Virus record (IMG/VR): IMGVR_UViG_3300022848_000005
Strand: one strand, 5' to 3'
Length of the DNA stretch: 64,000 nt
From: a virus
Lineage: Duplodnaviria; Caudoviricetes
Numbering within the stretch: the stretch's first letter is position 1; every line of letters begins with the position of its first letter. Position numbers and translations under genes: made by a program. This document shows, piece by piece, positions 9,600 to 54,899 of this stretch. Under the pieces are notes generated by a model, which was not told the DNA's origin, made no database searches, and was given only the letters and a program-made list of their open reading frames with translations.

Positions 9600-10355
9600 A
9601 TGGCCACACTTATAGAAAAACGACAAGAAATAGAAGAGTACATTAACCTAAGACTAGGTGGTCAGATGGTTGATGTTGAGTTAGATAAGGAGCATTATGA
9701 CCTTGCTATTAATAGGTCACTAACGAGATATAGACAGCGAGCTGAAAATTCTCAGGAGGAAAGTCATGCTTTCCTAGCTCTAAACAAAGATCAAAATGAG
9801 TACATACTACCTAGTGAAATACAAGAAGTACGTCAAGTGTTCAGACGTGGTATAGGTAGTACATCAGGCACAACAGCAAGCCAGTTTGAACCGTTCTCTA
9901 GCGGGTACCTTAACACATATATGTTAGTTGCTGGTAGAGTAGGTGGTTTATTAAACTATGAATTGTTTTCACAATATCAAGAATTAGCAATGAAAATGTT
10001 TGGTGGATTTATTAACTTTACATTTGACAGAAGTACAAAAAAACTTACTATTGTGCGTAAGGTCCCACAGGGCGGCGAAGACGTGTTACTTTGGACATAT
10101 AACTTTAAACCAGATATAACTATACTCAATGACCATATGATTTTTCCCTGGGTACAAGATTATTCTTTAGCACTTGCAAAACACATGTTAGGTGAGGCAA
10201 GAGAAAAGTTTGCACAGATTGCTGGACCGCAAGGTGGCACCAGTTTAAACGGTGCAAGTTTAAAGAGCGAAGCACAAATGGAAATGCAAACACTAGAGCT
10301 TGAAATTCAGAACCAGATGACTGGCACTCAGCCAATGTGGTGGGTTACCGGCTAG
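9600..10355 (+). CDS. gp13: Neck/head-tail adaptor, T4 gp13-like
   Basis: LRLGGQMVDVEL...AINRSL.RY...GEAREKF..I.GP.GG.SLNG motifs. Confidence 0.8.
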   Translation: MATLIEKRQEIEEYINLRLGGQMVDVELDKEHYDLAINRSLTRYRQRAENSQEESHAFLALNKDQNEYILPSEIQEVRQVFRRGIGSTSGTTASQFEPFSSGYLNTYMLVAGRVGGLLNYELFSQYQELAMKMFGGFINFTFDRSTKKLTIVRKVPQGGEDVLLWTYNFKPDITILNDHMIFPWVQDYSLALAKHMLGEAREKFAQIAGPQGGTSLNGASLKSEAQMEMQTLELEIQNQMTGTQPMWWVTG

Positions 10356-10402
10356 CCTTTTGTATACTTTTGTACTATAATAACTAGATGCAAAAATAAA
10401 TT

Positions 10403-10471
10403 ATGCCTAAAATTGCCGACTTAGAAGTTACCCCAAATCCAAACGCTAGGAAATTTGTACTTATATTATGA
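10403..10471 (+). pseudogene. 22-codon stub of the Nfu/NifU gene 5' end ([22 protein letters not shown])
   Basis: Near-identical to the start of 11990..12559; its TGA overlaps the sufB ATG. Confidence 0.85.
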
Positions 10472-11904
10472 ATACAGCAATTGATAACATTGTGAATCAG
10501 CCGTACAAGGCTGGATTCCACACCGAAATCGAGACGGATTCAATGGCTCGTGGTTTGAGCGAAGATGTTATTCGAACGATATCGAGCAAGAAGAATGAGC
10601 CAGATTGGTTGTTAGAGTTTCGTCTTAATGCTTACCGTCATTGGTTGACGATGACAGAGCCAAAATGGCCAAACGTGAGATATCCAAAAATTGATTTTCA
10701 GGACATAATTTATTATTCGGCACCGAAGTCTAAGGCGACCAAGAAGTCCATGGATGAGGTCGATCCAGAGTTATTGAAAACTTTTGAGAAGCTTGGTATT
10801 CCTATGAATGAGCGTGCGGCTTTGGCAGGCGTTGCTGTGGATGTTGTTTTTGATAGTGTTTCTGTAACGACCACCTATAAAGAAAAGTTAGCGGAATACG
10901 GGATCATATTTTGCTCGTTCTCGGAGGCGGTCAGAGACCATCCAGATCTGATTAAGAAGTACCTTGGCAGCGTTGTTCCTTATACCGATAATTTTTATTC
11001 TGCATTAAATTCAGCGGTTTTTACGGACGGTTCGTTTTGTTACATCCCCAAAGGTGTGAAGTGTCCGATGGATCTGTCGACTTACTTTCGCATCAATACT
11101 CAGGACTCGGGTCAGTTTGAAAGGACTCTGATTGTCGCAGAAGAGGGCAGTCAGGTGTGTTACCTAGAGGGTTGCACCGCACCTCAATTTGACACGAATC
11201 AATTGCATGCGGCGGTGGTTGAGCTCATTGCTCTTGATGATGCGGATATTAAGTATTCCACTGTGCAAAATTGGTATGCCGGAGATGAAAATGGCGTTGG
11301 TGGTATCTTTAATTTTGTGACTAAGCGAGGATTGTGCAAAGGTAAAAACTCCAAGATATCTTGGACCCAAGTGGAGACTGGATCAGCGGTGACTTGGAAA
11401 TACCCCTCGTGTATTCTTCTTGGCGATAATTCGGTGGGTGAGTTTTACTCCGTAGCGCTTACTAATCACATGCAACAAGCGGACACTGGAACAAAGATGT
11501 TCCATATTGGCAAGAATACCCGCAGCCGCATTATCAGTAAGGGTATTTCAGCGGGAAAATCTAATAATAGTTATCGTGGTTTGGTGAAGGTGTCACCTAA
11601 AGCCGATGGCGCTCGTAACTATTCTCAATGCGACTCTATGTTGATTGGCGATCTTTGTGGTGCCAATACATTCCCTTACATCGAGGTCGCCAACAAGAGC
11701 TCGATCGTAGAGCATGAGGCAAGCACATCAAAAATTGGTGAAGAGCAGATGTTTTATTTTTCGAGTCGAGGTATCGGTTCTGAAGAAGCTGTTTCTATGA
11801 TTATTAATGGATTCGTTAGAGATGTATTTATGCACTTGCCCATGGAGTTCGCGGTCGAGGCAACAAAATTACTCGGCTTAAAACTGGAAGGAAGTGTTGG
11901 ATGA
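10468..11904 (+). CDS. sufB: Fe-S cluster assembly scaffold SufB
   Basis: Full-length 478 aa with [49 protein letters not shown] and LEGSVG motifs. Confidence 0.97.
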
Positions 11905-11978
11905 TTATAAAGAATGCAGAAACGATCCTAAGTGTACATAACCTCGTCGCTAGTATTGATGGCACTCAAAAAACTTAA
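11901..11978 (+). pseudogene. sufC: 5' stub of sufC ([25 protein letters not shown])
   Basis: ATGA overlap with the sufB stop. IL(S)V.NL.A.IDG matches SufC N-termini, and sufC follows sufB in bacterial operons. Confidence 0.65.
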
Positions 11979-11989
11979 GTAAAAAAATT

Positions 11990-12559
11990 ATGCCTAAAAT
12001 TGCCGACTTAGCAGTTACGCCGAATCCAAACGCTAGGAAATTCGTACTCAAAGAACCTATAACCTATGGTGTGGCCAAGTCATATGAGTCAGCGGAAGAA
12101 GCGGTTGGGGATGAACTTGCGTCTAGTTTGTTTCAAATAGAGAGTGTGGTATCTGTTTTTTATGTCGATAATTGGATTACGGTGACGCAAGACGGCAGTG
12201 CTGATTGGAAAGATTTGATGCGCTCTTTGGCCGAACCAATTCGTTTGGCCCCTGTTGCAACTCAGGTTTCGGAGGAAGCATCGAAAACTGCCACATGGCT
12301 TCAAACGGATGAATCCAGTCTTTCCGAAACGGAACGGGCTCAGCTTGTGCAAATCAATGAATTGCTAGATGACCGTGTGAGGCCATACCTTCAAAGTGAT
12401 GGCGGTGATCTCTATGTTGTAGGCTTAGAGGATAACGTTTTAAGTGTCCATTATCAGGGCGCATGTGGTAGTTGCCCCAGTTCCTTATCTGGAACACTCG
12501 CTGGTATTGCCAGTTTAGTAAGGGAAATCGATCCTAACATCGAAGTTGTAGCGGTATAA
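11990..12559 (+). CDS. Nfu/NifU-family Fe-S carrier (Nfu N-terminal domain plus NifU C-terminal domain)
   Basis: [10 protein letters not shown]-terminal domain; VRPYLQSDGGD...YQGACGSCPSS CxxC motif. Confidence 0.92.
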   Translation: MPKIADLAVTPNPNARKFVLKEPITYGVAKSYESAEEAVGDELASSLFQIESVVSVFYVDNWITVTQDGSADWKDLMRSLAEPIRLAPVATQVSEEASKTATWLQTDESSLSETERAQLVQINELLDDRVRPYLQSDGGDLYVVGLEDNVLSVHYQGACGSCPSSLSGTLAGIASLVREIDPNIEVVAV

Positions 12560-12619
12560 GCTAGAACTGAATGACTTGAGCAACTGGCTAATTTTTCTGT
12601 TTAATTTTATTTCTACTTG

Positions 12620-12628
12620 TGTTATAAT
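12620..12628 (+). promoter_or_regulatory. Extended -10 promoter (TGnTATAAT), probably leaderless
   Basis: tgttataat lies 6 nt before ATG 12635. Confidence 0.55.
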
Positions 12629-12634
12629 CTATCT

Positions 12635-13258
12635 ATGATTATAGGAATATGTGGGCTGATTGGAACCGGCAAAGACACCGTTGCAGATTACTTGGTAAAT
12701 TTTCATGGTTACAGACGTGATAGTTTTGCTAACCCACTTAAAGATGCTGTTAGTACAATATTTGGTTGGGATAGAGATCTTGTGGAAGGCCGTACAACAA
12801 TGGCTCGCCAATGGCGTGAGCAAGTTGACGAATGGTGGTCGCAAAGACTAGGCATACCCAACTTAACTCCTCGTTATGTCTTACAACAGTGGGGTACCGA
12901 AGTTGTGCGTAAGAGCTTTCACGATGATACCTGGATTGCAAGTTTAGAAAACAAAATACGTAAAAGTAAAGACGACTCTGTTATTACAGATTGTAGGTTT
13001 CCTAACGAGATAAAAATGATTAAAGGTCTGGGCGGCAAAGTTCTCCGTGTTAAACGTGGGGAAGATCCTGTATGGTACAATACCGCAATAGCCGCCAATA
13101 ACGGGGACAAACAAGCAGAGGATCAGATGCACACCCACTTTAAGGTACACATTAGCGAATGGGCGTGGGCAAGTGCAGACTTTAATTATACTGTATTAAA
13201 CAACGGCAGTATAGATGAGCTATATGAAGTACTTAAAAATCTGGTAGTATCTCACTAG
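12635..13258 (+). CDS. Deoxynucleoside monophosphate kinase (T4 gp1-like)
   Basis: IIGICGLIGTGKDT P-loop, SFA.PLKD, PR.VLQQWGTEV.R and TDCRFPNE motifs. Confidence 0.9.
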   Translation: MIIGICGLIGTGKDTVADYLVNFHGYRRDSFANPLKDAVSTIFGWDRDLVEGRTTMARQWREQVDEWWSQRLGIPNLTPRYVLQQWGTEVVRKSFHDDTWIASLENKIRKSKDDSVITDCRFPNEIKMIKGLGGKVLRVKRGEDPVWYNTAIAANNGDKQAEDQMHTHFKVHISEWAWASADFNYTVLNNGSIDELYEVLKNLVVSH

Positions 13259-30135: not shown

Positions 30136-30637
30136 AGAACTAACGTGCCACAGTATTATGTACATACAGTACGAAGTTATGGAGCATCTTGCCAATTACG
30201 AGCTAGAAGAAGGCTGGAACGATATTGACGAAGCAACTTGTCTACGTAGTTGTCCTAGACTCATGCTATACCTGAAAGAACTTAAACTGGCTCCTAGAGA
30301 TATCGCATGTACATACCTTACTGAACACTTAGACTTGCACGTAGATGCCAAGCCGGTAGTGGCTAAACTTAATATACCAATACAACATTGTGTGGGCAAT
30401 ATAAACTACTGGTATGACGAGGACGTAAGTCACAGAAGAACTAAAAAAGATAAATTCAACAGAAACGTTCCTGACTTAGCAGGATGGGTACCAAAGTCTA
30501 ATATTATAACACATCAATTCTTTACAAAACCAATAGTGTTTAACAGCCAAATACCGCATGGTGTTAAAGTTACATACGGTCCACGTATAGTTTTAAGTAT
30601 AACATTTTTTAATGAGCCGTTAAATGAACTGCATTAG
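30122..30637 (+). CDS. Cupin/2OG-Fe(II) oxygenase-like protein
   Basis: LHVD (HxD), LNIPI, distal PHGV and PRIVLSI. Confidence 0.55.
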   Translation: MQAFKELTCHSIMYIQYEVMEHLANYELEEGWNDIDEATCLRSCPRLMLYLKELKLAPRDIACTYLTEHLDLHVDAKPVVAKLNIPIQHCVGNINYWYDEDVSHRRTKKDKFNRNVPDLAGWVPKSNIITHQFFTKPIVFNSQIPHGVKVTYGPRIVLSITFFNEPLNELH

Positions 30638-31571
30638 ATTCAAGCACTTTGCAAGACTTAACCCTGACGGCACAGTAAGCCGATGTGGTCACATGGTAAA
30701 ACCTCCTCGTTTTAATTCATTTAATGACATGAATAACAGTGACTGGAACAATAACTTAAAAGATTGGCCTGTCGAATGTGTTAGATGCAAAGTTAGCGAA
30801 AATCAGGGCAAAGAAAGTGTTAGGCAATTCAGTAACAAACAACATGAAGAACTATCTCAAGCTCATAAAGATTATCTAATCATTGGTGGAGTGTTGGATA
30901 ATATATGTAACTCTGCATGTCAACATTGTAATCCACACTTAAGCACAAAGTTTGGCGCCATTGCTAATAATAAGATAATAGTAGACAACACAGATAAATT
31001 TTACAACTTTCCGCAGGAACGTATTGTTAAGTTAGATATTAATGGTGGAGAGCCCACAGCAAGCCCCAACTACAAAAAATTACTGGAGTATTTGCCTGCT
31101 AACGTGCGTTATGTGAGAATAAACACAAACGGCAGTCTACGTATAGATCCAACGCCTTTGCTTAACCGTGGCATTGATGTTACAATAACTATGAGTTTAG
31201 ATGGCATAGACAAAGTACATGATTACTTACGTTGGCCCGTTGTTTGGAAGACATGGTTAAAACAATTTAACTATTACAACGAATTTAAAAACAAGAACTT
31301 CCATTTAGATGTATGGTCAACTATAAGTGCATTAAACCTTAAAGACTATCCTAACATCAAAAAGTTTACAGAAGATAAGGGTGTTAATTGGGCATGGGCA
31401 TTTTTAGAATCACCAGATGTATTAAGCATTAGACACACAAACTTTTTAACTGAACCTGCTAACGAGTTATTTGATGTGGTGGGGACAGAGCAAGACAACA
31501 GTCAGAAACTAACAGCGTGGTTAAAGTACCAGGATACTATTAGAAAAATCAATTACAAGGACTACTTATGA
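30624..31571 (+). CDS. Radical SAM protein with an N-terminal twitch/SPASM-like Cys region
   Basis: CNSACQHC (CX3CX2C), GGEP and INTNG motifs. Confidence 0.9.
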   Translation: MNCIRFKHFARLNPDGTVSRCGHMVKPPRFNSFNDMNNSDWNNNLKDWPVECVRCKVSENQGKESVRQFSNKQHEELSQAHKDYLIIGGVLDNICNSACQHCNPHLSTKFGAIANNKIIVDNTDKFYNFPQERIVKLDINGGEPTASPNYKKLLEYLPANVRYVRINTNGSLRIDPTPLLNRGIDVTITMSLDGIDKVHDYLRWPVVWKTWLKQFNYYNEFKNKNFHLDVWSTISALNLKDYPNIKKFTEDKGVNWAWAFLESPDVLSIRHTNFLTEPANELFDVVGTEQDNSQKLTAWLKYQDTIRKINYKDYL

Positions 31572-32089
31572 AAATAGCAATTACGGGTGGAACTAACGGT
31601 ATAGGTAAGGCATTACTAGAACATTACATTAAAAAAGGACACACTGTGATGGATTACAGTAAACGAAATGGTTGGGATATTATACACCATGAACGTATTG
31701 CTGAACGAGTAGCACAATGTGATTGGTTTTTTAATAATGCACAACAAGGTTATGCACAGACTGAGCTACTGTTTGGTGTATATGAGTACTGGAAGGATAA
31801 ACCAGGCAAAAAGATAATAAACATTAGCAGTATGATGGCTGGAATGACAGTTAGTTGCTTACCGGGTTACGACATGTTAAAGTATCATCATCAAAAGCGA
31901 ACGCTGGAAAGCGCAGTAGAAGTGTTACGAAATAAGATGACTTGGCCACAGCTAGTTACCGTACGACCTGGTAAAGTAGACACACAGGGAGAAGGCGGTG
32001 CTGATGTAACGGCCTGGGTAAGCAAATTGGTGCGTATACTTGAAGAAGACCAAGTTGGCATGGAAATATACGACATTAGTCTAGCATAA
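31568..32089 (+). CDS. Short-chain dehydrogenase/reductase
   Basis: IAITGGTNGIG, NNA, INISS and YHHQK (YxxxK). Confidence 0.88.
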   Translation: MKIAITGGTNGIGKALLEHYIKKGHTVMDYSKRNGWDIIHHERIAERVAQCDWFFNNAQQGYAQTELLFGVYEYWKDKPGKKIINISSMMAGMTVSCLPGYDMLKYHHQKRTLESAVEVLRNKMTWPQLVTVRPGKVDTQGEGGADVTAWVSKLVRILEEDQVGMEIYDISLA

Positions 32090-33243
32090 TGGACCCTAAA
32101 GAATACGTAACAAACAAAGTTAGGTGCCCGATCCCCTGGACCGGCATAATGATCAACCATGACGGACAAGTTAAGAATTGTATTAGAGCATACGAGGATA
32201 TAGGTGATTTAAAGACAACTCCCATTCGTGATATTGTATTAGGTAGTAAAAATATAGAGATACAACAGGCACATCAAAACAATAACAAGCACAATAGTTG
32301 CCAGGGGTGTCATAAGCTAGAAGAACAAAAAACAGACTTTAATATCATTAGCGACCGCAAGTATTACATTAAAGAAATGCGTAATGTAGACAAAGGCATA
32401 TACGATCATAATACACATGAACTACATCAGATAGATGTACGCTGGCAAAATACCTGTAACTTTGCTTGTATATATTGTGGTCCTGAATTTAGTAGTAAGT
32501 GGGCACAAGAGGTTAATATACACTTACCAACACCCAGCAAAGAAAACTATGACGACTTGCGTAACTATGTTTTTGACAATGTTAAAAACTTAAAGAACGT
32601 ATATCTAGCTGGTGGTGAGCCCATGCTAATGACAGAGAACGAAGAACTGTTAGAGCTACTGCTTAAACACAATCCCGACGTAAATCTACGCATTAACACT
32701 AACCTAAGTCATACTAACACACGAGTGTTTGATTTGGTATGTAAGTTTAAAAACGTACACTGGATTGTGAGTGCAGAGACCATGGGAGATGACTATGAGT
32801 ACATACGTTATGGTGGTCAATGGGCAACATTCTGTCATAACCTACGTTGGATCAAGGACTTAGACCATAAGATAACATTTAACATGTTGTACTTTGCTCT
32901 TAATGCATTTACCGTCTTTTATTTTATTGAAAAGTTTAAAAATGACTGGAACTTTCATCCAAATGCATTTGTAATTGGGCCCGTTTTACAACCTGAAGCA
33001 CTTAACGTTCGGCATCTTCCTAAATTGACATTAGATAGGATTGGTGTTATACTACAAGAGAAGATTAACGAACACCCTGGATATCTATTAGAAGATAGTT
33101 ATAGGAATTTATTGAGGTATATACAAGAGCCGTTTAAAAAAGATCCAAACAGCACTGTAGATTTTTTAAAGGAAATAGACGCTCGTAGAGGCACAGACAG
33201 CGAGCAGGCATTCCCTTACATATATAAACTAATGAGGCAATAA
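32089..33243 (+). CDS. Radical SAM protein with an N-terminal twitch domain
   Basis: CPIPW...NC...CQGC; CNFACIYC, SS.W, GGEP and NTN. Confidence 0.92.
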   Translation: MDPKEYVTNKVRCPIPWTGIMINHDGQVKNCIRAYEDIGDLKTTPIRDIVLGSKNIEIQQAHQNNNKHNSCQGCHKLEEQKTDFNIISDRKYYIKEMRNVDKGIYDHNTHELHQIDVRWQNTCNFACIYCGPEFSSKWAQEVNIHLPTPSKENYDDLRNYVFDNVKNLKNVYLAGGEPMLMTENEELLELLLKHNPDVNLRINTNLSHTNTRVFDLVCKFKNVHWIVSAETMGDDYEYIRYGGQWATFCHNLRWIKDLDHKITFNMLYFALNAFTVFYFIEKFKNDWNFHPNAFVIGPVLQPEALNVRHLPKLTLDRIGVILQEKINEHPGYLLEDSYRNLLRYIQEPFKKDPNSTVDFLKEIDARRGTDSEQAFPYIYKLMRQ

Positions 33244-33244
33244 C

Positions 33245-34342
33245 ATGGCACAAAAACCCTTTGATGTATCAAAATTTAGAAAAGGCTTAACCAAAAGTAT
33301 TGAAGGTATCAGTTTTGGATTTAATGATCCAACAGATTGGATCAGCACAGGCAACTATGCACTAAACTATCTTATCAGTGGCGACTTTAACAAAGGTGTG
33401 CCACTAGGTAAAGTTACAGTGTTTGCCGGGGAGTCTGGCGCAGGTAAAAGTTATATTTGCGCAGGTAATATTGTAAAAGAAGCACAAGCACAGGGTATCT
33501 TTGTTATCTTAATCGACACTGAAAACGCACTTGATGAGAATTGGTTAAAAGCACTTGACGTTGACACCAGCGCCGACAAACTGCTAAAACTTAACATGGC
33601 CATGGTTGATGATGTTGCTAAAACAGTAAGTGACTTTATGATAGAGTATAAAACACTACCGTCAGATGACAGGCCTAAAGTATTGTTTGTTATTGACAGT
33701 TTGGGTATGTTGTTAACACCTACAGATGTTGACCAGTTTAACAAAGGTGATATGAAGGGTGACATGGGTCGTAAGCCCAAGGCACTAACATCACTAGTAC
33801 GTAACTGTGTAAACATGTTTGGTAACGCTAACGTAGGGCTTGTAGCAACCAACCATACATATGCAAGTCAGGACATGTTTGACCCTGATGACAAAATATC
33901 AGGTGGACAAGGCTTTATCTATGCAAGCAGTATTGTTGTTGCAATGAAGAAGATGAAACTTAAAGAAGACGAAGACGGTAACAAGATATCAGAAGTAAAA
34001 GGTATTAGAGCAGGCTGTAAGATAATGAAGACTCGTTACGCAAAACCATTTGAAGGCATACAAGTTAAAATACCGTATGAAACCGGTATGAATCCATATA
34101 GTGGACTGGTGGACCTGTGTGAGAAAAAGAGTTTATTGGTGAGAGAAGGCAACAGCCTTAAATACACAACTTCAGCAGGTGATGAAATCAAACAGTTCCG
34201 CAAGGCTTGGGAACGCAATGAAGGCGGATGTTTAGATACAATCATGAATGATTGGGACACTAAGGCCCTGGCCCTCACGCACAAAACAACTGATAACGAT
34301 CCGGAAGTAGCAGATGCAAATTCTATTGCAGAAGAAGTATAG
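33245..34342 (+). CDS. uvsX: RecA/UvsX recombinase
   Basis: FAGESGAGKS Walker A, LIDTENA, VIDSLG, NHTY and SGG motifs. Confidence 0.95.
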   Translation: MAQKPFDVSKFRKGLTKSIEGISFGFNDPTDWISTGNYALNYLISGDFNKGVPLGKVTVFAGESGAGKSYICAGNIVKEAQAQGIFVILIDTENALDENWLKALDVDTSADKLLKLNMAMVDDVAKTVSDFMIEYKTLPSDDRPKVLFVIDSLGMLLTPTDVDQFNKGDMKGDMGRKPKALTSLVRNCVNMFGNANVGLVATNHTYASQDMFDPDDKISGGQGFIYASSIVVAMKKMKLKEDEDGNKISEVKGIRAGCKIMKTRYAKPFEGIQVKIPYETGMNPYSGLVDLCEKKSLLVREGNSLKYTTSAGDEIKQFRKAWERNEGGCLDTIMNDWDTKALALTHKTTDNDPEVADANSIAEEV

Positions 34343-35690
34343 TGAGCTACTAACCCAACCTGTTAATCAAATATACAGAGAACTTAAATCTGTTTACAAG
34401 CATGCGTTTGCAGACAACGAACGCATTCTTTTTATTGATGATGTAGAGGGTACAGATGCTAAGTCTAATTTAGAGTTTTATTTAGATAAACTTCTAGATC
34501 ACCTAGACATTGACAGGTTCTTTATACAAACGGTTAACAGAGGTAGCCAAACTATAGCTAACCCTACTAACTATCACATACCGGACTCAGTGTGCATAAC
34601 ACCCTGGTTAAGTCTGGAAGTGGATGTTGATAGTAAACTGCACCGTTGTTGCTTGTGGGACAGAGAAAAAGGCACTACTTCAGACAGTCTTGTGGAATAT
34701 TTTAAAAGCACAGAACAGGTCCAGTTGAAGCAGGACTTCTTACAGGGTAAACGCCCTGACGCATGCAATAAGTGTTGGCAACTAGAATCAGCAGGTGGTA
34801 CAAGTAAACGGTTAGCAGACAACTATGTGTTTAGGGATCACAAATTTGATATAGACTACAACGACACAACATCTAGTCGGATAGTTAACTTAGACATTAA
34901 GTTAGGTAACAAGTGTAATCTGGCATGCAGGATATGTGGCCCAAGATGCAGTAGTACTTGGTCACGGTTTGCTGATGCCGTTACTGTGGAGTTTAATTGG
35001 TTAGAAAACGAGTCCAGTGCGTTTTGGTCAGACATAATAGATATCAGTGAAGACGTTAAGTACATTACCTTTGCAGGTGGTGAACCGCTACTAGACAAGA
35101 CACATAGAAAACTGTTACAATACTTTATTGACACAGGGTTAAGCGAAGACATTGCACTTCATTACAACACTAACGGTACAGTATTTGCAGATTTTCTCTT
35201 TGATTATTGGGACCAGTTTAAGTCTGTTGAGTTAAGTTTTAGTATAGACGCAGTCGGTAAAAGATTTGAGTATGAACGTTTTGGTATGATCTGGGATAAG
35301 GTACATGCTAATTTACAGCGTTACAGTAAAACGGATTATACATGTAACCTTTACGCTACACTAACAGCTCTTAATGTTATGTACAGTGATGAGATATACG
35401 AATACTCTGAACAGTTAGGTTGTGGTATTACCTATAATTTATTAACAGATCCAGAGGATCTTGCAGTAACAAACTTGCCCGTTAAGACAAAGTTACATAT
35501 TAAAAATAAATTACTAGCGTTAGACATAAATGGATTTAAAGAAAAAATAATACCTGTAATTAGTATGATGGAAACAAAAAGTAGTATAAGTAGTTTACAA
35601 GAATTTTTGTTGCCTCAAGACTTTAAACGAGCTCAGCGTTTTGAGGACTATTACCCTGAGCTACACTCGGAGATAACTAAATGTCAATAG
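34314..35690 (+). CDS. Radical SAM protein with a twitch domain and an extra N-terminal domain
   Basis: CITPW...RCC...CNKCW; CNLACRIC, SSTW, GGEP and YNTNG. Confidence 0.92.
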   Translation: MQILLQKKYSELLTQPVNQIYRELKSVYKHAFADNERILFIDDVEGTDAKSNLEFYLDKLLDHLDIDRFFIQTVNRGSQTIANPTNYHIPDSVCITPWLSLEVDVDSKLHRCCLWDREKGTTSDSLVEYFKSTEQVQLKQDFLQGKRPDACNKCWQLESAGGTSKRLADNYVFRDHKFDIDYNDTTSSRIVNLDIKLGNKCNLACRICGPRCSSTWSRFADAVTVEFNWLENESSAFWSDIIDISEDVKYITFAGGEPLLDKTHRKLLQYFIDTGLSEDIALHYNTNGTVFADFLFDYWDQFKSVELSFSIDAVGKRFEYERFGMIWDKVHANLQRYSKTDYTCNLYATLTALNVMYSDEIYEYSEQLGCGITYNLLTDPEDLAVTNLPVKTKLHIKNKLLALDINGFKEKIIPVISMMETKSSISSLQEFLLPQDFKRAQRFEDYYPELHSEITKCQ

Positions 35691-37976: not shown

Positions 37977-39452
37977 ATGATACTAGGCGTAAGTTACGGT
38001 TTCCACGATGCAGGAGTAACACTAATCGACGGAAACGAAATTCTATTTGCAGGACATGCAGAGCGTTACAGCAAGAATAAGCACGACGCCAAGCTCAACA
38101 AAGCAATATTTCAGGAAGCCTTTCGGTATGGTGAACCTAATAGAATTATCTATTACGAAAACCCCTGGAATAAAAAACTACGACAAGCATTTGCAGGACA
38201 ATGGCAGGATGCTTTACAGTGGCCCAGTGTAAAGAAAGAACTACAACACCTAACAGGACTTAACAACTGCCCTATATACTATGCTGATCATCATGAAGCA
38301 CACGCCGCCGCAGGCTTCGCTACAAGCCCATTTGAGAGTGCCGCAGTTGTGGTAGTAGATGCTATTGGTGAGTGGGACACAATGAGTATATGGCAGGCTT
38401 ATATGGAAGGAGACTCAGTTCAATATGAAAAACTTTGGTCAAACACATATCCGCACAGTATTGGGCTTATGTACTCTGCATTTACACAACGTCTGGGCCT
38501 TAGACCTCTAGATGAGGAATATATCCTAATGGGTATGAGTGCGTATGGTGACGGATCGTTATTAAGTAGTACTATCAAGAGTGACCTAATAAGTGACCTT
38601 AGGCAGTTAAAATTTAGCAAAAACTTGCACTTGGGTATAGAAAAAGACTACTTAAAAGACTCTAAAGACGTCGATATTGCCGCAGGTGTACAAATAGTAA
38701 CGGAACAACTGTTAGATACTATATTTCATAAAGCATGGGATATAACTGGTGAACGCAATGTTGTGTTTATGGGCGGAGTGGCACTTAATTGTGTAGCCAA
38801 CCGAAACATTGGCAAATATTTTGAAAACATTTGGGTTATGCCTAATCCTGGAGATGCTGGTAGTAGTTTAGGAGCCGCCGCAGTATTAGATGGTGGTAAA
38901 TTAAACTGGAAGCATTCTTATTTAGGCACTGATATACCTGGTGAGTACCCTGTACGGCGTCTAGTAAACTATCTTAAAAAGAATAAGATTGCAGGCGTAG
39001 CAAGTGGTAGAGCAGAGTTTGGTCCTAGAGCATTAGGTCACCGCAGTTTATTAGCAGACCCACGTGGTGCAGAAATTAAAGATGCTGTAAACAAGATTAA
39101 AAAGCGACAACTATTCAGACCATTCGCTCCTGCCATACTTGCTGAACACGTTAACGACTATTTTAAAATGCCCATGTCATGGCATGATAGTCCCTACATG
39201 CAAGTAGTTGCTCGGTGTAAAAAGCCCACAGAGTTTCCTGCTATTGTGCATGTAGACGGAACTAGTCGTGTGCAAACAGTTAGCAAAGATGATAGTCCAG
39301 GATTTAGACAACTACTTGAGACATGGTATAAAGAAACAGGTTGCCCTATGTTGTTAAACACCAGTTTAAACATTAGGGGAGAGCCTATGGTAGATGATCG
39401 TAAAGATGCAGATAGGTTTGAGGAGAAGTACGGAGTTAAAGTCTTCTCATGA
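37977..39452 (+). CDS. Carbamoyltransferase (NodU/CmcH family)
   Basis: HDAG, ERYS..KHD, HH.AHAA, DAIGE, GGVALNC, GDAG, EFGPRALG.RS, RPFAP, H.DGTSR.QT and LLNTSLN..GEP. Confidence 0.95.
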   Translation: MILGVSYGFHDAGVTLIDGNEILFAGHAERYSKNKHDAKLNKAIFQEAFRYGEPNRIIYYENPWNKKLRQAFAGQWQDALQWPSVKKELQHLTGLNNCPIYYADHHEAHAAAGFATSPFESAAVVVVDAIGEWDTMSIWQAYMEGDSVQYEKLWSNTYPHSIGLMYSAFTQRLGLRPLDEEYILMGMSAYGDGSLLSSTIKSDLISDLRQLKFSKNLHLGIEKDYLKDSKDVDIAAGVQIVTEQLLDTIFHKAWDITGERNVVFMGGVALNCVANRNIGKYFENIWVMPNPGDAGSSLGAAAVLDGGKLNWKHSYLGTDIPGEYPVRRLVNYLKKNKIAGVASGRAEFGPRALGHRSLLADPRGAEIKDAVNKIKKRQLFRPFAPAILAEHVNDYFKMPMSWHDSPYMQVVARCKKPTEFPAIVHVDGTSRVQTVSKDDSPGFRQLLETWYKETGCPMLLNTSLNIRGEPMVDDRKDADRFEEKYGVKVFS

Positions 39453-41128: not shown

Positions 41129-42286
41129 ATGAGATATCCATTAGCTTGTAGTACTTGGGATAATAAAGAACTAGAAGCAATTCAAGAAGTAATTAATACG
41201 GGTCGTTATACTATGGGTGCTCGTGTTAAACAATTTGAAAAAGAGTTTTGCGACTACTTTAAATGTGCCGACGCCGTGATGGTAAACAGCGGATCAACAG
41301 CAAATCTATTAATGTTGGCGTTATTGGCATTAAAGTACAATTTAAAAGGTGATATAATTGTGCCTGTGGTTAGTTGGTCAACAACATATTATCCATTACA
41401 ACAATATGGTTTCAAATTAAATTTTGTAGATATTGATAAAGATACGTTAAACATTGATCCTAGTAAAATAGAAAAAGCGATAACTAAAGATACTTGTGCT
41501 ATTTTTGCTGTTAATCTGTTAGGCAATTCTTGTGAGTATAAAAAACTTAATGAACTTGCAGAAAAACATAATTTATTATTGATAGAAGATAACTGTGAAA
41601 GTTTAGGTGCAATATCAGATACAGACGCTTACACCGGTACGATTGGTCTTATGGGCAGTTTTTCATTTTTCTTTAGTCATCATTTGCAAACTATGGAAGG
41701 TGGTATGATTGCTTGTCAAAGTAAAGATGACGCAGATTTCATTAGATCATTGAGAGCGCACGGCTGGTGTAGAGATTTACCAGACGATAGTAATATTTAC
41801 AAAAAAACAGGTGACAACTTTAAAGATAGTTTTACTTTTATTACACCAGGGTATAGTGTTAGACCATTAGAGATGAGTGGGGCAATAGGTAGTGTACAAC
41901 TTAAAAAATGGCCTGATATGAGAGAACAACGAGTTAAGAATGCAGATTACTTTAAAGAGAAGTTTAACGATTTTAAAGACGTTCAAATACAAAAAGAAGT
42001 AGGTAATTCTAGTTGGTTTGGATTCTCTATGGTGTTCAATGGAAATTTAACAGGTAAAAGAGATATCATTGTACAAAAATTCAAAGAAAACGAAATAGAG
42101 AGTAGACCAATTGTTGCAGGTAACTTTATGAAAAATCCTGTAATAGAATACCTTAACTATATAGATAATAAAGATTACACCGTTGCTGATTATATACACG
42201 ATAATGGATTGTTTATAGGTAATGATGTGAGAGATTTAACAGAAAATATTGATTTAGTTTACAATATAATAAAGGATATAAAATGA
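41129..42286 (+). CDS. colD: GDP-4-keto-6-deoxy-D-mannose 3-dehydratase (ColD-type, DegT fold)
   Basis: YPLA.STW N-terminus; FSHHLQTMEGG has His in place of the Schiff-base Lys, which is diagnostic of ColD; RAHGW.R.LP. Confidence 0.85.
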   Translation: MRYPLACSTWDNKELEAIQEVINTGRYTMGARVKQFEKEFCDYFKCADAVMVNSGSTANLLMLALLALKYNLKGDIIVPVVSWSTTYYPLQQYGFKLNFVDIDKDTLNIDPSKIEKAITKDTCAIFAVNLLGNSCEYKKLNELAEKHNLLLIEDNCESLGAISDTDAYTGTIGLMGSFSFFFSHHLQTMEGGMIACQSKDDADFIRSLRAHGWCRDLPDDSNIYKKTGDNFKDSFTFITPGYSVRPLEMSGAIGSVQLKKWPDMREQRVKNADYFKEKFNDFKDVQIQKEVGNSSWFGFSMVFNGNLTGKRDIIVQKFKENEIESRPIVAGNFMKNPVIEYLNYIDNKDYTVADYIHDNGLFIGNDVRDLTENIDLVYNIIKDIK

Positions 42287-43287
42287 AGACAGCATTGATA
42301 ACAGGTATAACAGGTCAAGACGGAAGTTATCTAGCAAAATCTTTATTGAATAAAGGTTATAAAGTATATGGTGGGCAGAGAAGAAGTACCACAAACAAAT
42401 ACTGGCGCTTAGATGAAATGGGTATTACAGATAATATTGAATTTGTAGAATTAGATTTAATAGATCAAGCAAACATTAGAAGAGCAATAGATGATACGAA
42501 ACCAGATGTAATTTACAATTTGGCGGCTCAATCATTTGTTGGATTATCTTTTGAACAACCTGAACTAGCTACCTTAGTTGATGGAGTGGGTGTACTGAGA
42601 ATGATAGAAAGTGTAAGACAAGTTAATCCTGATATTAAATTTTATCAAGCTTCTACTAGTGAGTTATATGGTAAAGTATTTGAAACGCCTCAAAAAGAAA
42701 CAACAAAGTTTTGGCCTAGATCACCTTATGGTGTAGCAAAGTTATTTGGTCACCACATAACAATTAACTATAGAGAAGCATATAACATATTTGCGTCAAC
42801 AGGTATTTTGTTTAACCACGAAAGTCCCATGAGGGGTGAAGATTTTGTTACAAGAAAAATATCTAAAGGTATTGCTCTATGGAAGAAAGAACAACGACCA
42901 ATTGTTTTAGGGAACATTTATGCTAAAAGAGATTGGGGCCACGCTGAAGATTTTGTTGAAGGTATGCAACTTATTATGAATCACACTAAAGCAGATGACT
43001 TTATTTTAGCAACAGGTGTGGTTAATACTGTAAAAGACTTTTTAGAAATGACACTAACGTATTTAAATATACAATATTACTGGAAAAATGATGAATGTTA
43101 TGAGAAAGATACAAATATACAAATATCTAAAACTGATAAAAAATATTTCAGACCTGCCGAAGTAGATATATTACAAGGTGATGCAACTAAAGCAAGAACT
43201 GAATTGGGTTGGACACATAAACACACAGCTCATAGTTTAATGATAGATATGGTTGATGCCGATATGAGAAGATATTGTGGAAAATAA
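42283..43287 (+). CDS. gmd: GDP-mannose 4,6-dehydratase
   Basis: TGITGQDGSYLA, YNLAAQSFV, YQASTSE, PRSPYGVAK, FNHESP.RG..FVTRKI, RDWGHA and RPAEVD. Confidence 0.97.
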   Translation: MKTALITGITGQDGSYLAKSLLNKGYKVYGGQRRSTTNKYWRLDEMGITDNIEFVELDLIDQANIRRAIDDTKPDVIYNLAAQSFVGLSFEQPELATLVDGVGVLRMIESVRQVNPDIKFYQASTSELYGKVFETPQKETTKFWPRSPYGVAKLFGHHITINYREAYNIFASTGILFNHESPMRGEDFVTRKISKGIALWKKEQRPIVLGNIYAKRDWGHAEDFVEGMQLIMNHTKADDFILATGVVNTVKDFLEMTLTYLNIQYYWKNDECYEKDTNIQISKTDKKYFRPAEVDILQGDATKARTELGWTHKHTAHSLMIDMVDADMRRYCGK

Positions 43288-44002
43288 AATATTTGTAACA
43301 ACTTTTAATAGAAGACTTTTTGATCAATATGCTCATCAACTGATTAGTAGCTATGTAGCAACTGAACAAAAGATACCTCTTTATGTTTTTGTTGAAGATG
43401 ATATTACCTATTATACTAATTTAGACAATGTACGTTATATTAAATTATTGGAAGAAGAACCTGATTTAAAAGATTTTACAGAAAGAAATAAAAGTAAAGA
43501 AGCTAATTCATTTACTTTTGATGCAGTAAGATTTTCATACAAAGTATATGCTCAAAACGCAGGAAGAAAATATGGAAATAAGATTTATTATGTGGATAGT
43601 GATTGTGTGTTCACAAAACAAATACCAGATGAATGGTTTGATGAGTGTTTGCCAGATGATAAATTTATTTCTTTTTACGATAGACCACATCAATATACTG
43701 AAACAGGATTTGTGGCATTCAATGAACGTAAAAAAGAAATCTCTAACGACTTCTTCAATCAATATACTAACTATTACAAAACAGATGAAGTGTATAAGTT
43801 AACAGCTTATACAGATTGTCATACACTAGACGCAACAAGAAATCATTTTAAAGATAATTTAAACTACTCAGAAAATATATTAGGCGATGGTAAAAACGGA
43901 CATATTATGGCTAGAGATAAGTTTCTTAATCCTTACATAGATCATAGAAAAGGTCCTAGAAAACAACAAGAGCATAGTCTAGAATGGATTCAGAATCAAT
44001 GA
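43277..44002 (+). CDS. Glycosyltransferase-like protein (DxD)
   Basis: DAVRFSYKV, YVDSD, ETGF, TDC and DHRKG.RK motifs. Confidence 0.65.
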   Translation: MENKIFVTTFNRRLFDQYAHQLISSYVATEQKIPLYVFVEDDITYYTNLDNVRYIKLLEEEPDLKDFTERNKSKEANSFTFDAVRFSYKVYAQNAGRKYGNKIYYVDSDCVFTKQIPDEWFDECLPDDKFISFYDRPHQYTETGFVAFNERKKEISNDFFNQYTNYYKTDEVYKLTAYTDCHTLDATRNHFKDNLNYSENILGDGKNGHIMARDKFLNPYIDHRKGPRKQQEHSLEWIQNQ

Positions 44003-49831: not shown

Positions 49832-51190
49832 TTGCCAGCGAAACCCGCTGAACTATTAACTCCCAGCCCTGTCCCTACACAGAATGTAAGTAATGGAGAA
49901 TATCCTCCATTAGCTCAGACGCCACAACAGCGCCTAGTACAGAGTAAGATAAACGCAGACAGTACGTTTGACGAATCTTTTAACGCTATGAACACAGTTT
50001 ATGGCCCGGGCTTCGTATACTCTAATTATGGTGACTTAAGTAAACAGTTTGTCTTTGATGTGCAGACACACTTACTTAAGGATGGGTATAAAAACCCACA
50101 GCAACTTGCACACAGGCAGTATGCACACAACTATCTAAATTCAGACGTGGAGCGTTACCCCACGTTTGATGCACAGAAGTTTGATAATTACATTAAAGAA
50201 ATATACCTAGACAGTGATACCAAACTGGCACTAATAAGTGGAACACCTGGCGATTCTGCTGATGAGGACCTGATAGATAATGATAGTATTAAGTGGGCAA
50301 GTACAGTTATTAACAATGTCTGTGGTAGTAAGCGAAGTTTTAGTCACAGCATAATACAACCTAAAGTACCTGGTTACCTAGATGAAGTGGACTACGCTAT
50401 AGAAGTCCTACAGCCAGATAGCTGGAAGTGTTATACAATAGGAACCTTTGCATACCCGACTCGACGGAATAAACAGTTTAGATTAGATGATGAAAAACTG
50501 GTCTATCCCTGGTTCGAACGAGCAGAGCGAGCAGGTATTAAAAACATCTGTGTACACAAAGGACTATTACCACCAGATTATCGAGAGTCCTGGCGAGACT
50601 TGTGGGAATACAGTACTGTTCAAGACCTCGCAAAAGCCGCTCGAGACTGGCCGAACTTAAACTTTATAATCTATCACAGTGCATTGCGTATAAGTCACGA
50701 AAACCCAGAGGATATCCTCAAGAACTTCGTTAAAACTGGTCGGATTGAATGGACAACCGACTTGTGTGATATAGTACACAAGTATGGACTTAAAAATGTT
50801 TATGCAGAACTAGGTACAAGTTTTGGTAGCATGGTTGTGCTTAATCCCCTGGTAGCAAGTGCATGGTTAGGGCAGATGCTAAACATGATGGGTGAGGATA
50901 GAATATTATGGGGTACTGACTCTGTGTGGTATGGATCACCACAGTGGCAGATAGAAGCACTACGTAGACTGGAAGTACCTGATCACATTATGCATCGTAT
51001 GGGCTGGGACAAAAACTTAGGAGAACCCGACGGCACTGTAAAGCAAAAAATATTTGGACTTAACGCCGCTAGACTGTATAATGTAGATGTTGCAAGTGCA
51101 ATAAATGATATAGATTCTAGTAAAATAGAAAAAATGCGTTTGGGGCATAGCGAACCTAGAAATAATAGATACTATGGTTATATAGCATAA
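49832..51190 (+). CDS. Amidohydrolase-superfamily (amidohydro_2-like) metal-dependent hydrolase, an auxiliary metabolic gene
   Basis: FDVQTH (DxxTH), WKCY, VHKG, IYH, YAELG and WGTDS.WYGSPQWQIEA motifs. Confidence 0.85.
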   Translation: MPAKPAELLTPSPVPTQNVSNGEYPPLAQTPQQRLVQSKINADSTFDESFNAMNTVYGPGFVYSNYGDLSKQFVFDVQTHLLKDGYKNPQQLAHRQYAHNYLNSDVERYPTFDAQKFDNYIKEIYLDSDTKLALISGTPGDSADEDLIDNDSIKWASTVINNVCGSKRSFSHSIIQPKVPGYLDEVDYAIEVLQPDSWKCYTIGTFAYPTRRNKQFRLDDEKLVYPWFERAERAGIKNICVHKGLLPPDYRESWRDLWEYSTVQDLAKAARDWPNLNFIIYHSALRISHENPEDILKNFVKTGRIEWTTDLCDIVHKYGLKNVYAELGTSFGSMVVLNPLVASAWLGQMLNMMGEDRILWGTDSVWYGSPQWQIEALRRLEVPDHIMHRMGWDKNLGEPDGTVKQKIFGLNAARLYNVDVASAINDIDSSKIEKMRLGHSEPRNNRYYGYIA

Positions 51191-52185: not shown

Positions 52186-52514
52186 AGTATCTATGCATCG
52201 GTAATCCCACAAGTGCTACTGATGACATAACCACACGTCTGGCTGTTACTAAAAAAACCATTAACCACGGGCTTGCGATTAACATAGAGCAGGCGGGGTT
52301 TTATCACATAAGTTTAGCAGACATCAGTATATTGGAAGCAGAAACATTCGTCGAACAGTTTGATGAGTTATACTTCTTAGAACAAGCACGAGAAACATAC
52401 AGCAGTGAATCAGTATACAATAACACAAGAGCATTGCTGTTATATATAAAAAACTGGAATGTAAAACCTTTTAAGATTGTTAAAGAGTCCTGGATAAAAT
52501 GTCTGACGTATTAA
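52182..52514 (+). CDS. Hypothetical protein
   Basis: MKYLCIGN...GFYH.SL.D; coupled ORF. Confidence 0.55.
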   Translation: MKYLCIGNPTSATDDITTRLAVTKKTINHGLAINIEQAGFYHISLADISILEAETFVEQFDELYFLEQARETYSSESVYNNTRALLLYIKNWNVKPFKIVKESWIKCLTY

Positions 52515-53803
52515 AATACAAAGCACGGGTACTGGACACAAAGTCCCAGTCTTTCTGTGGTGCAAAGTGGTACGAGGCTGTGATATTTTTAGGGTCTGGC
52601 AAGACAATGAGTTGCCATCATAATCCTTATCACGAAGTAAGTGACACAGCAGTACTTGAAAACTACAAGGCAATACACAATACTTCTGAGAAGAAACAAC
52701 AACGAGCAGAGATGTTACGTGGCGAACGTCCAGAAGGCTGTAATTACTGCTGGCGTCTTGAGGATAATAACTCCGTTAGTGATCGGGTATATAAAAGTCA
52801 GAAGTTTACTGATGCTGACAATCAGTTAGCATTTGACTCAGACCCCAATGCTGACGTTGACTTACAGTCACTGGAGTTGCACTTTGACAAAGTATGTCAG
52901 ATGGCATGTAGTTACTGCCATGCAGGTTACAGTACTACCTGGGCACAGGATATAAAGCAAAATGGTGCATACGAAAATGTAGAGTCTGACAAACAGCAAC
53001 ACTACAAGTATCAGAGAAAAATAGATCAACTGTTTAAGCCTACCCAGGAAAACTTATATGTAGAAGCATTTTATAAATGGTGGGACGCAGACTTACATCG
53101 GACACTTAAAGAGTTACGCATACTAGGTGGGGAACCCTTATTGAGTCCACACATATGGCGTTTTATTGAATGGTTTAAAAGCAAAGACACTAAATGTAGT
53201 CTGGAGTTTGTAACTAACCTAGGACCCAAAGTTGATGTGCCCAGGTTCCTTAATGCTGTAGACGGCAAACAGGTTGTGGTAATGACCAGTATGGAAACTG
53301 TGGGAGAACATGCTGAGTACACCAGAGACGGGGTAGATTACGAGCTTTGGTGTAAAAATGTCGAACTCTGTCTGCAGAGCAAAACGGTGTCACGTATGTC
53401 AGTGCTGTTTACCGTAAATGCCTTAAGTGTGTTTAATATGTGCGATCTTATGGCAAAGATTATACACTGGAGGTCAGTGTACGGCAAAGACAGGATAAAC
53501 ATGAGTATTAATATCTTACGTTATCCAGTATTTCAAAACATAACAGTTTTATCTGACACTGCAAGACAACAAGTAGCCACTACTCTGGAACAATGGTTAG
53601 AACTACACGACAACTATATTACTGACTACGAGTATCAACAACTTGAGAGACTCGTAAATTATGTTAGAGTTGTTGACGCACCCGACAATTTACAAGATGT
53701 ACGCAAAGACTTTAAATCGTTCTTTACACAATATGATAAACGCAGAGGAAAAAGTTTTAAGGAAACCTTTCCTGAATTAACAGACTGGTACGGAGAGATA
53801 TAA
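52499..53803 (+). CDS. Radical SAM protein with an N-terminal twitch domain
   Basis: FCGAKW...SCHH...CNYCW; CQMACSYC, S.TW and GGEPL. Confidence 0.92.
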   Translation: MSDVLKYKARVLDTKSQSFCGAKWYEAVIFLGSGKTMSCHHNPYHEVSDTAVLENYKAIHNTSEKKQQRAEMLRGERPEGCNYCWRLEDNNSVSDRVYKSQKFTDADNQLAFDSDPNADVDLQSLELHFDKVCQMACSYCHAGYSTTWAQDIKQNGAYENVESDKQQHYKYQRKIDQLFKPTQENLYVEAFYKWWDADLHRTLKELRILGGEPLLSPHIWRFIEWFKSKDTKCSLEFVTNLGPKVDVPRFLNAVDGKQVVVMTSMETVGEHAEYTRDGVDYELWCKNVELCLQSKTVSRMSVLFTVNALSVFNMCDLMAKIIHWRSVYGKDRINMSINILRYPVFQNITVLSDTARQQVATTLEQWLELHDNYITDYEYQQLERLVNYVRVVDAPDNLQDVRKDFKSFFTQYDKRRGKSFKETFPELTDWYGEI

Positions 53804-54823: not shown

Positions 54824-54841
54824 GTTGTACTTATCGTTGTA

Positions 54842-54899
54842 AATCAATAACTTACGTGGTTATATTTTGGTTGACGTTTGGTCCGAGTGAACCTATAAT
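54842..54899 (+). promoter_or_regulatory. Sigma70 promoter (TTGACG-17-TATAAT) with an upstream IHF-consensus site
   Basis: -35 at 54871, -10 at 54894; AATCAATAACTTA at 54842. Confidence 0.85.

Follow-up and report, generated by a model that had tools for sequence, protein, structure and literature searches.

A sufB-nfu module from a Burkholderiales suf operon between gp13 and the dNMP kinase gene of a T4-like phage

The IMG/VR record IMGVR_UViG_3300022848_000005, of which a stretch of 64,000 nucleotides (nt) was analysed (hereafter the window), comes from a T4-like myophage. A module with two intact genes of iron-sulphur (Fe-S) cluster assembly, sufB and nfu, sits between its gene for the head-tail adaptor gp13 and that for its deoxynucleoside monophosphate (dNMP) kinase. 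All three host-like pieces of the module derive from a single operon of an uncultured Burkholderiales bacterium, marine or saline, which is the donor. Taken as a whole, a host-derived module with a two-step origin and an auxiliary Fe-S function is in our view quite probable. An initial annotation of this DNA had proposed that a piece of a bacterial sufBC operon was inserted into an older phage nfu. The host sufB and sufC stub at a duplicated nfu start are borne out, while the old phage nfu and the bare insertion are not.

The module and its phage setting

Profile searches with PHROG and Pfam matched phage hallmarks (gp13-type adaptor, gp15, sheath, tube and large terminase). The module has the properties of auxiliary metabolic genes: on 187-kb contigs phage genes lie on both sides (gp13 on one, dNMP kinase and sheath on the other) and its nearest relative is cellular. 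The same 2.4 kb occur, identical, on at least 24 contigs from several salt-lake metagenome samples of JGI and SRA, and contigs with identical layout reach 187-289 kb. Phage and host copies share identical stretches of up to 343 nt and two short ENA contigs (L201 and L202, see below) resemble host-phage mixtures, as might be seen if a phage contig had been misjoined to host suf reads. However, Logan contigs from two runs match the window without a single mismatch over 9600-12646 and 9600-12387 and cross all junctions, including both of those at which the initial annotation had considered a chimera, and the joints J0, J1 and J2 described below are not present in host contigs. Together with the many identical contigs this effectively refutes an assembly artefact, whose probability is vanishingly small.

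SufB matches the NCBIfam equivalog profiles NF008773 (894.7 bits, cutoff 717) and TIGR01980 (647.8 bits, cutoff 346.4) as well as Pfam SUFBD_core (257 bits). In its alignment with 5AWF chain A, QCDSMLIG and VEHEA are kept. They contain the equivalents of E. coli C405, H433 and E434, which we take from the literature to be functional residues. Nfu matches PF08712 with 70.3 and PF01106 with 66.3 bits (cutoff 27 each), and its CGSC motif lies inside HYQGACGSCPSS of the translation. Both genes are intact and, to judge from ratios of nonsynonymous to synonymous divergence (dN/dS) of 0.03-0.07, under strong purifying selection. The partner genes of sufB are not kept within the window, where sufC is reduced to 22 codons and sufD is absent. 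The phage protein would therefore have to use host SufC and SufD.

Donor operon and composition

The donor operon was reached through protein searches (contigs L100-L103). Its order is Rrf2 regulator, class-I desulfurase, sufA, sufB, sufC, sufD, sufS, sufU, nfu and Rieske protein, with products of 478 residues for sufB and 189 for nfu. The divergence of the phage cassette from it is mostly synonymous. Phage sufB differs from that of L100 at 45 of 1437 nt and 7 of 478 residues (dN/dS 0.05), and from the host lineage by a synonymous divergence (dS) of 0.13-0.20 with dN/dS of 0.03-0.05. For nfu there are 24-28 differences in 570 nt and 5 in 189 residues (dS 0.16-0.20, dN/dS 0.06-0.07). The salt-lake runs with the phage also contain host-type contigs; the loose ends of the latter run into host sufA, sufC and the region downstream of nfu, and their variant sites coincide with L100. 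The 95-97% match to the operon, the shared variant sites and the co-occurrence in runs make this Burkholderiales lineage the likely host of the phage.

The initial annotation had noted a foreign composition of the cassette, which is confirmed. Both genes stand at the top of the 59 open reading frames (ORFs) of the window for GC content (sufB 43.8%, nfu 45.8%; mean 38.7 +/- 2.6%) and for the share of CpG-containing codons (9.4% and 8.4%, z 4.8 and 4.0; 3.5 +/- 1.2%). Their GC matches that of the host genes (43.9% and 46.0%, for a window average of 39.0%). The same annotation took nfu for a pre-existing, older phage gene. However, its DNA is 95-95.8% identical to the operon that gave sufB (96-97%) with similar dS, its composition is as foreign as that of sufB, and the closest phage relatives carry neither gene. 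Thus nfu is no old phage gene; it resembles the host as closely as sufB does and is equally recent.

Repeat, relics and joints

The features of the locus are collected in Table 1. Copies A and C, 68 nt long with a spacing of 1587 nt, agree at 63 of 68 positions and form a direct repeat, identified by a repeat search, which contains the 64-bp repeat (60/64) around sufB of the initial annotation. The latter also recognised correctly that the repeat is a duplicated nfu start and that the stop of a 22-codon stub overlaps the sufB start: the stub ORF (10403-10471) ends with a TGA (10469-10471) overlapping the sufB ATG (10468-10470). Copy A, in the stub, retains the host states C30/A33 and copy C has G30/G33; relative to the host, copy A carries 2 changes and copy C 3.

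Table 1. Features of the sufB-nfu locus, with the three host-like pieces at the end
Position	Strand	Feature	Evidence
9600..10355	+	gp13-like head-tail adaptor, W-type backbone, left flank	PHROG 211; Pfam Phage_T4_gp13 on identical contigs
10356..10387	+	Ancestral phage intergenic region, -10-like TATAAT at 10376-10381 (putative promoter)	Aligns with gp13-kinase spacer of cassette-free L002-L012
10388..10399	+	Relic of the phage's own dNMP kinase start, ATG CAA AAA TAA	Comparison with L002-L014
10394..10461	+	Repeat copy A, host nfu -9 to +59, inside stub ORF	63/68 vs copy C; 95.6-97.1% vs host nfu
10398..10404	+	J0, 7-nt microhomology AAATTAT, phage kinase 5' end joined to host nfu leader	Heptamer in phage relatives and hosts L100/L103
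10462..10467	+	J1, illegitimate joint, nfu +59 to sufB leader; six nt without an exact match in either parent	Three-way comparison with host nfu and host sufA-sufB spacer
10468..11904	+	sufB, intact, 478 residues	NCBIfam SufB equivalogs; Pfam SUFBD_core
11901..11978	+	25-codon fusion ORF, SufC 1-22 in frame with last three codons and stop of sufU	Comparison with host SufC MIIKNAATILSVHNLVASIDGTQILKG and host SufU end GTQKT*
11961..11970	+	J2, deletion joint, imperfect 10-nt microhomology GGCACTCAAA (sufC) / GGAACCCAAA (sufU)	blastn pieces overlap there; base-level comparison
11981..12048	+	Repeat copy C, leader and first 59 nt of intact nfu	G30/G33, common to nfu of L203-L208
11990..12559	+	nfu, intact, 189 residues; Nfu_N and NifU C-terminal domain with CGSC	PF08712, PF01106
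12560..12572	+	Remains (~13 nt) of host DNA 3' of nfu, strongly diverged	L203-L207 have host-like GCCGGATCTCAAT; window agrees at 7/11
12573..12591	+	Relic, last ~6 codons and stop of gp13 from X-type phage lineage	Aligned with gp13 ends of L190, L192, L200 and with L203-L207
12592..12665	+	X-type intergenic region with TGTTATAAT (12620-12628), then X-type first ~30 nt of dNMP kinase	Exact 38-mer in 15 X-lineage IMG/VR contigs
12635..13258	+	dNMP kinase, hybrid of X-type start and W-type body, right flank	PHROG 139, Pfam DNMK; sliding identity
10394-10461		Piece A, host nfu -9 to +59	95.6-97.1% nt identity
10467-11970		Piece B, host sufB -1 to sufC +70	95.5-96.8% nt identity
11961-12561		Piece C, last 29 nt of sufU, nfu and 2 further nt	95.0-95.7% nt identity

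At the left end, the kinase of cassette-free relatives starts with ATG CAA AAA CAA ATT ATA GG where the window reads ATG CAA AAA TAA ATT ATG CCT. The kinase relic ends after three codons, at a stop created by C>T at 10397, and L207 carries an identical relic including the same T. The presence of AAATTAT both in phage relatives and in the host nfu leader indicates that this leader was joined to the phage kinase start at that heptamer (J0). The initial annotation had supposed that the stub handed the promoter and ribosome-binding site of nfu to sufB. Instead, the promoter-like region upstream is the putative former dNMP kinase promoter of the phage with its start codon, and the repeat contains no Shine-Dalgarno-like tract. 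A consensus promoter scan found no -35/-10 pair in 10356-10387 and nothing convincing at the cassette. The parents of J1 show only a loose GT(A)CT similarity, and this joint recurs in the ENA contig L202.

Downstream of sufB, the start of the fusion ORF overlaps the sufB stop (ATGA) like the 4-nt sufB/sufC overlap of the host. As the initial annotation supposed, the peptide matches SufC (21 of its first 22 residues are identical to host SufC). The ORF stops at the stop codon of sufU itself, 11 nt before the nfu ATG, the same spacing as in the host. Its 25-residue product has no Pfam match and no ATPase domain and, judged by its sequence, it is a relic and not a SufC. At J2, host sufC reads GAT GGC ACT CAA ATA CTC, the end of sufU GGA ACC CAA AAA ACT TAA, and the phage GAT GGC ACT CAA AAA ACT TAA. 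The phage thus passes from sufC into the end of sufU, implying that ~3.77 kb (the rest of sufC, sufD, sufS and sufU) were lost at the 10-nt microhomology. Two sufC' states common to the window and the L203-type phages were considered as phage-specific markers; they also occur in more distant hosts, are probably ancestral and prove nothing.

The repeat search detected no inverted repeats at the cassette ends and no recombinase adjoins the cassette. A transposon or an integron cassette is thereby rejected, the 68-nt repeat being a gene start.

The right flank belongs to a second phage lineage. Sliding identity is 97-98% to L192, L203 and L207 at the X-type flank and, from ~12670, 92-97% to the W-type L002. 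An X-type relic inside a W-type window implies that the module crossed between phage lineages. The exact 38-mer at 12617-12654, composed of the promoter-like box TGTTATAAT and the first dNMP kinase codons, occurs in 15 IMG/VR contigs (L186-L200) whose neighbouring genes are ~60-75% identical, and may be a conserved regulatory or recombination element. The segment 12562-12598 (relic of the host downstream region and X-type gp13 tail) is ~33% diverged from L203-L207, whereas the preceding nfu differs from theirs by 2-3% and the following promoter-like region by ~2%.

Related phages and alternative layouts

The gp13 of the window has 84-92% amino acid identity to that of its IMG/VR relatives L002-L014. 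Twelve of these contigs (L002-L012 and L014) read gp13, 47 nt, kinase, with neither sufB nor nfu. More distant relatives (L013, L015, L022, L027, L074, L079 and L193) carry unrelated cargo of 0.2-1.4 kb at this boundary, including a DUF6071 protein (L013) and a homing-endonuclease-like ORF bearing NUMOD3 (L027). The differing cargo marks the site as an insertion hotspot.

Alternative layouts were found by exact-protein look-up. L203 and L204 have no stub: after an X-type gp13 come the end of sufA, sufB and sufC', which a variant J2 links to nfu, and 13 nt of host DNA and the gp13 relic then lead to a kinase of X-type. The J2 variant involves the same microhomology with the crossover on the other side and is 15 nt shorter; the sufC relic is here out of frame and overlaps nfu. 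The initial annotation had found the composition consistent with a recent transfer, but the presence of sufB-sufC'-nfu in this other backbone without the stub contradicts a recent private event and indicates an element shared and mobile among phages. The sufB of these contigs (L203:4494-5930, also in L204) is a patchwork: it resembles L100 in the sufA' leader and in parts of the final ~400 nt, and the first ~1000 nt show only 60-77% identity to every sampled host lineage.

The nfu-only layout which had been predicted in relatives is found in one related contig, L207. It is 99.2% identical to the window over 1300 nt up to nfu +59, J0 included, and continues with an intact nfu and no sufB. Its left arm is W-type and its right arm is X-type and 99.4% identical to L203. 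Its nfu is that of the L205 type apart from nt 30, nt 33 and a third site, at which it has the stub states. Across the sample, G30/G33 is found in all full-length phage nfu copies but that of L207, and C30/A33 in the stub, L207 and all hosts. Two ENA contigs show mixed layouts: L201 (ERZ27315894) has host desulfurase-sufA-sufB with J2, and L202 (ERZ27315616) has stub-J1-sufB followed by an entire sufC start. In the sufB of both contigs, sites of phage type are interspersed with sites of host type, and the contigs may be assembly mixtures or real phage-host recombinants. The initial annotation had also suggested that sufB could be looped out or amplified by recombination between the repeats; neither the corresponding 10461-12049 join nor tandem copies were found in contigs of four runs, which hide rare forms.

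Searches of other collections returned little. A megablast search with the region had 0 matches among 50,697 phage records, and tblastn with SufB against phage records gave distant or doubtful matches only, the best being the end of the Microcystis phage MaAM05 record, where a whole suf operon is present. This record end (L001; GenBank MW495066.1, 262792-273876) contains panB, panC, complete sufB-C-D-S and iscU; it looks bacterial, unlike a trimmed phage module. In IMG/VR, an Nfu search found no match and a SufB search found relatives at 58-59% only. The J0 pattern had 0 matches in metagenome_contigs and viral_contigs, collections that evidently do not hold the source contigs, so that this result is uninformative on nfu-only forms.

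Origin of the module

A history of capture, deletion, transfer between lineages and a second join is, from these sequence comparisons, somewhat more credible to us than doubtful. A contiguous fragment from sufA' to nfu would have been captured once, just after gp13 of an X-type phage; its occurrence in an X backbone, where a second copy of the gp13 tail lies on the right side of the cassette, has the appearance of the original capture. The segment from sufC to sufU would then have been lost by deletion at the 10-nt microhomology. Next, the nfu end of the module would have entered the W-type lineage through an illegitimate joint on the left, at the 7-nt microhomology with the kinase 5' end, and a homologous crossover on the right, in the P-loop region of the kinase. 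Finally, a later join would have added a sufB-sufC'-nfu cassette to the resident nfu, by the illegitimate joint J1 at nfu +59 and a homologous crossover in nfu or in the shared X-type flank. Such an event would be a case of homology-facilitated illegitimate recombination and would correspond to the Campbell-type insertion of a circle. One illegitimate and one homologous joint necessarily leave the nfu start duplicated on either side of sufB. The C30/A33 of the stub against the G30/G33 of copy C suggests that the two nfu starts come from different copies, and therefore favours a history in which a resident nfu came first.

Several points weigh against this order of events. The evidence for it consists of two sites in the 59 nt of the stub and of short contigs that are single examples, and L207, a W/X hybrid, could be partly mis-assembled. 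The nfu tree does not resolve the monophyly of the phage copies, so that capture on a single occasion rests on the shared right-hand junction. Moreover, in L201 and L202 junctions otherwise found only in phages stand next to flanks found only in hosts, and should these contigs be real, J1 could be older than the loss of sufC-sufU.

The close similarity of all pieces to one host could also be explained by a one-step capture, that is, a single replicative event resembling microhomology-mediated break-induced replication with several template switches at microhomologies. Its path would run from the kinase 5' end to nfu -7 to +59, then from sufB -5 through sufC +70, then from the sufU tail through nfu and back into the phage, and it implies equal age of both nfu copies and no nfu-only ancestor. 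All pieces indeed map to the same 6 kb of one operon and have diverged from the host to a similar extent, short homologies exist at J0 and J2, and the number of changes in copy A (2) and copy C (3) is similar. However, the G30/G33 of copy C is known only from other phage nfu copies, the right flank is a relic of another phage lineage, and L203-type phages have sufA'-sufB-sufC'-nfu without the stub. The differing nfu states, the X-type flank and the stub-less type point to several events with phage-to-phage transfer, and we regard the one-step capture as improbable. Still less credible, and indeed very unlikely, is the direct insertion of a bare host sufB-sufC' in a long-resident phage nfu with a 64-bp target duplication, as the initial annotation had it. 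The repeat brackets sufB exactly and the nfu-only layout of L207 exists, but on its upstream side copy C continues for 20 nt more than copy A does, reaching into the sufU tail (11971-11989), which contradicts a bare insertion and indicates that sufB-sufC' arrived fused with the final 29 nt of sufU and with nfu. In addition, identity, dS, GC and CpG codons show nfu to be no less host-like than sufB, and the nearest phage relatives lack it. What remains of that proposal is the insertion at a resident phage nfu, since sites 30 and 33 suggest that the stub stems from another nfu copy; the insert was a pre-trimmed cassette.

The duplication may alternatively have been kept because it is useful, the stub start feeding ribosomes to sufB and the repeat acting as a switch by which recombination removes or restores sufB and as a patch of homology between phages that are otherwise diverged. 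The stop-start overlap (10468-10471), the recurrence of this stub with its J1 in another contig of slightly different sequence (L202) and the stub states at sites 30 and 33 of the L207 nfu, which place a crossover inside the repeat, are in line with this. By contrast, L203-type phages would express the same genes without a stub, the contigs of the four runs show no excision joint, although they would hide rare forms, and the window-type copies are all identical and give no measure of selection on the stub. We consider this use of the duplication doubtful. A related and rather more speculative idea is that the cassette is a portable recombination handle, the stub repeat toggling sufB while crossovers in nfu make W/X hybrids such as L207 and, if L201 and L202 are real, exchange continues during infection with host sufB and nfu. 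Two phage lineages that otherwise differ by ~35% here have near-identical DNA in the shared cassette only. If the idea were true, an auxiliary gene would drive genome mosaicism and a continuing two-way flow of alleles between phage and host.

Proposed function

The module may act as an auxiliary Fe-S supply, a proposal based on gene content and layout which we find credible and doubtful in about equal measure. The putative former kinase promoter would drive a chain made of the 3-codon kinase relic, the 22-codon nfu stub, sufB, the 25-codon sufC/sufU relic and nfu, and the abutting ORFs would permit coupled translation. Nfu-type proteins deliver 4Fe-4S clusters. During infection the phage would therefore add a scaffold, SufB, and a 4Fe-4S carrier, Nfu. 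As 471 of the 478 residues of SufB are identical to those of the host protein, it should fit host SufC and SufD. The added proteins would raise the supply of clusters, plausibly for the radical SAM enzymes of the phage. Four radical SAM-family ORFs with CxxxCxxC are present in the window (30624-31571, 32089-33243, 34314-35690 and 52499-53803), one having a SPASM domain and the fourth being just below the Pfam cutoff (28.4 vs 29.5 bits). They are the likely Fe-S clients of the module.

This proposal also meets with difficulties. The RNA runs share 0.23-0.32 of words, which probably reflect host genes and are compatible with host transcripts. The in-frame relic and the stop-start overlap are each expected by chance in one case out of three. 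The coupling layout is not conserved, the relic of L203-type phages being out of frame and overlapping nfu and the stub being absent, which suggests that the relics are more likely scars than designed parts. Lastly, a SufB without SufC and SufD of its own is wholly dependent on the host.

Elsewhere in the window, a low-GC island (41129-44002, 29-33% GC vs the 39% mean) contains a DegT-type aminotransferase, a GDP-mannose 4,6-dehydratase-like gene and an ORF without known function, and looks like a second foreign block devoted to sugar modification. Other metabolic-looking genes encode a carbamoyltransferase, an amidohydrolase and a fatty-acid desaturase (37977-39452, 49832-51190 and 54104-54847).

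Comparison with known systems and significance

Fe-S auxiliary genes are already known in T4-like phages. Marine members carry A-type carrier/sufA and iscU genes alongside many radical SAM genes (PMC5332604), and sufE and nifU matches have been found in viromes (PMC8940887). The present phage resembles these in its host-derived Fe-S genes, in having close relatives without them and in the co-presence of radical SAM genes. It differs in encoding a scaffold SufB and an Nfu-type carrier instead of an A-type carrier, IscU or SufE, and in that the donor operon, all junctions and several intermediate layouts were recovered. Group C amoC-phages of freshwater ammonia oxidisers likewise have SufB listed among their host-like auxiliary genes (bioRxiv 10.64898/2026.06.18.733297); it groups there with the predicted betaproteobacterial host and is so host-like that reads are hard to assign. 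Those phages belong to another group and have another host, and an nfu partner, stubs or junction anatomy are not mentioned in that text.

With respect to the host operon type (Rrf2/IscR, NifS-like desulfurase, sufA-B-C-D-S, sufU, nfu and Rieske; L085-L103), the phage keeps the gene order, the 4-nt sufB/sufC overlap and the 11-nt sufU-nfu spacer. Unlike the host, it has only sufB and nfu intact, the region from sufC to sufU being deleted and sufA and the desulfurase absent.

Homology-facilitated illegitimate recombination, or Campbell-type insertion, was reportedly described by de Vries and Wackernagel in 2002. As in that system, one homologous anchor and one illegitimate joint leave the anchor as a direct repeat flanking the insert. 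Here, in contrast, the process is read from sequence only and the partner may be another phage instead of free host DNA. T4-type mobile regulatory cassettes (PeSL) and hyperplastic regions, said to have been described by Arbiol and colleagues in 2010, offer a second parallel: the cargo at the gp13/kinase boundary varies among relatives and the cassette lies between two promoter-like regions. However, these flanks are W-type and X-type, align poorly and are not copies of one element, and the repeat is a gene start and not a promoter. A PeSL cassette was rejected on this account, as the promoter-like regions on the two sides are of different type.

What is unusual is how fully the capture and transfer history is legible. 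The donor operon at 95-97% identity, the joints with their microhomologies, the deletion, the kinase-start relic, the relic of a second lineage and the alternative layouts have survived together, and such captures are rarely legible. The SufB and Nfu pair, scaffold and 4Fe-4S carrier, adds to the Fe-S genes known in phages, in a genome rich in radical SAM genes, and ties the phage to a specific uncultured Burkholderiales host. The locus provides a concrete and testable case of host genes that would have been acquired, trimmed to their useful parts and passed between phages.

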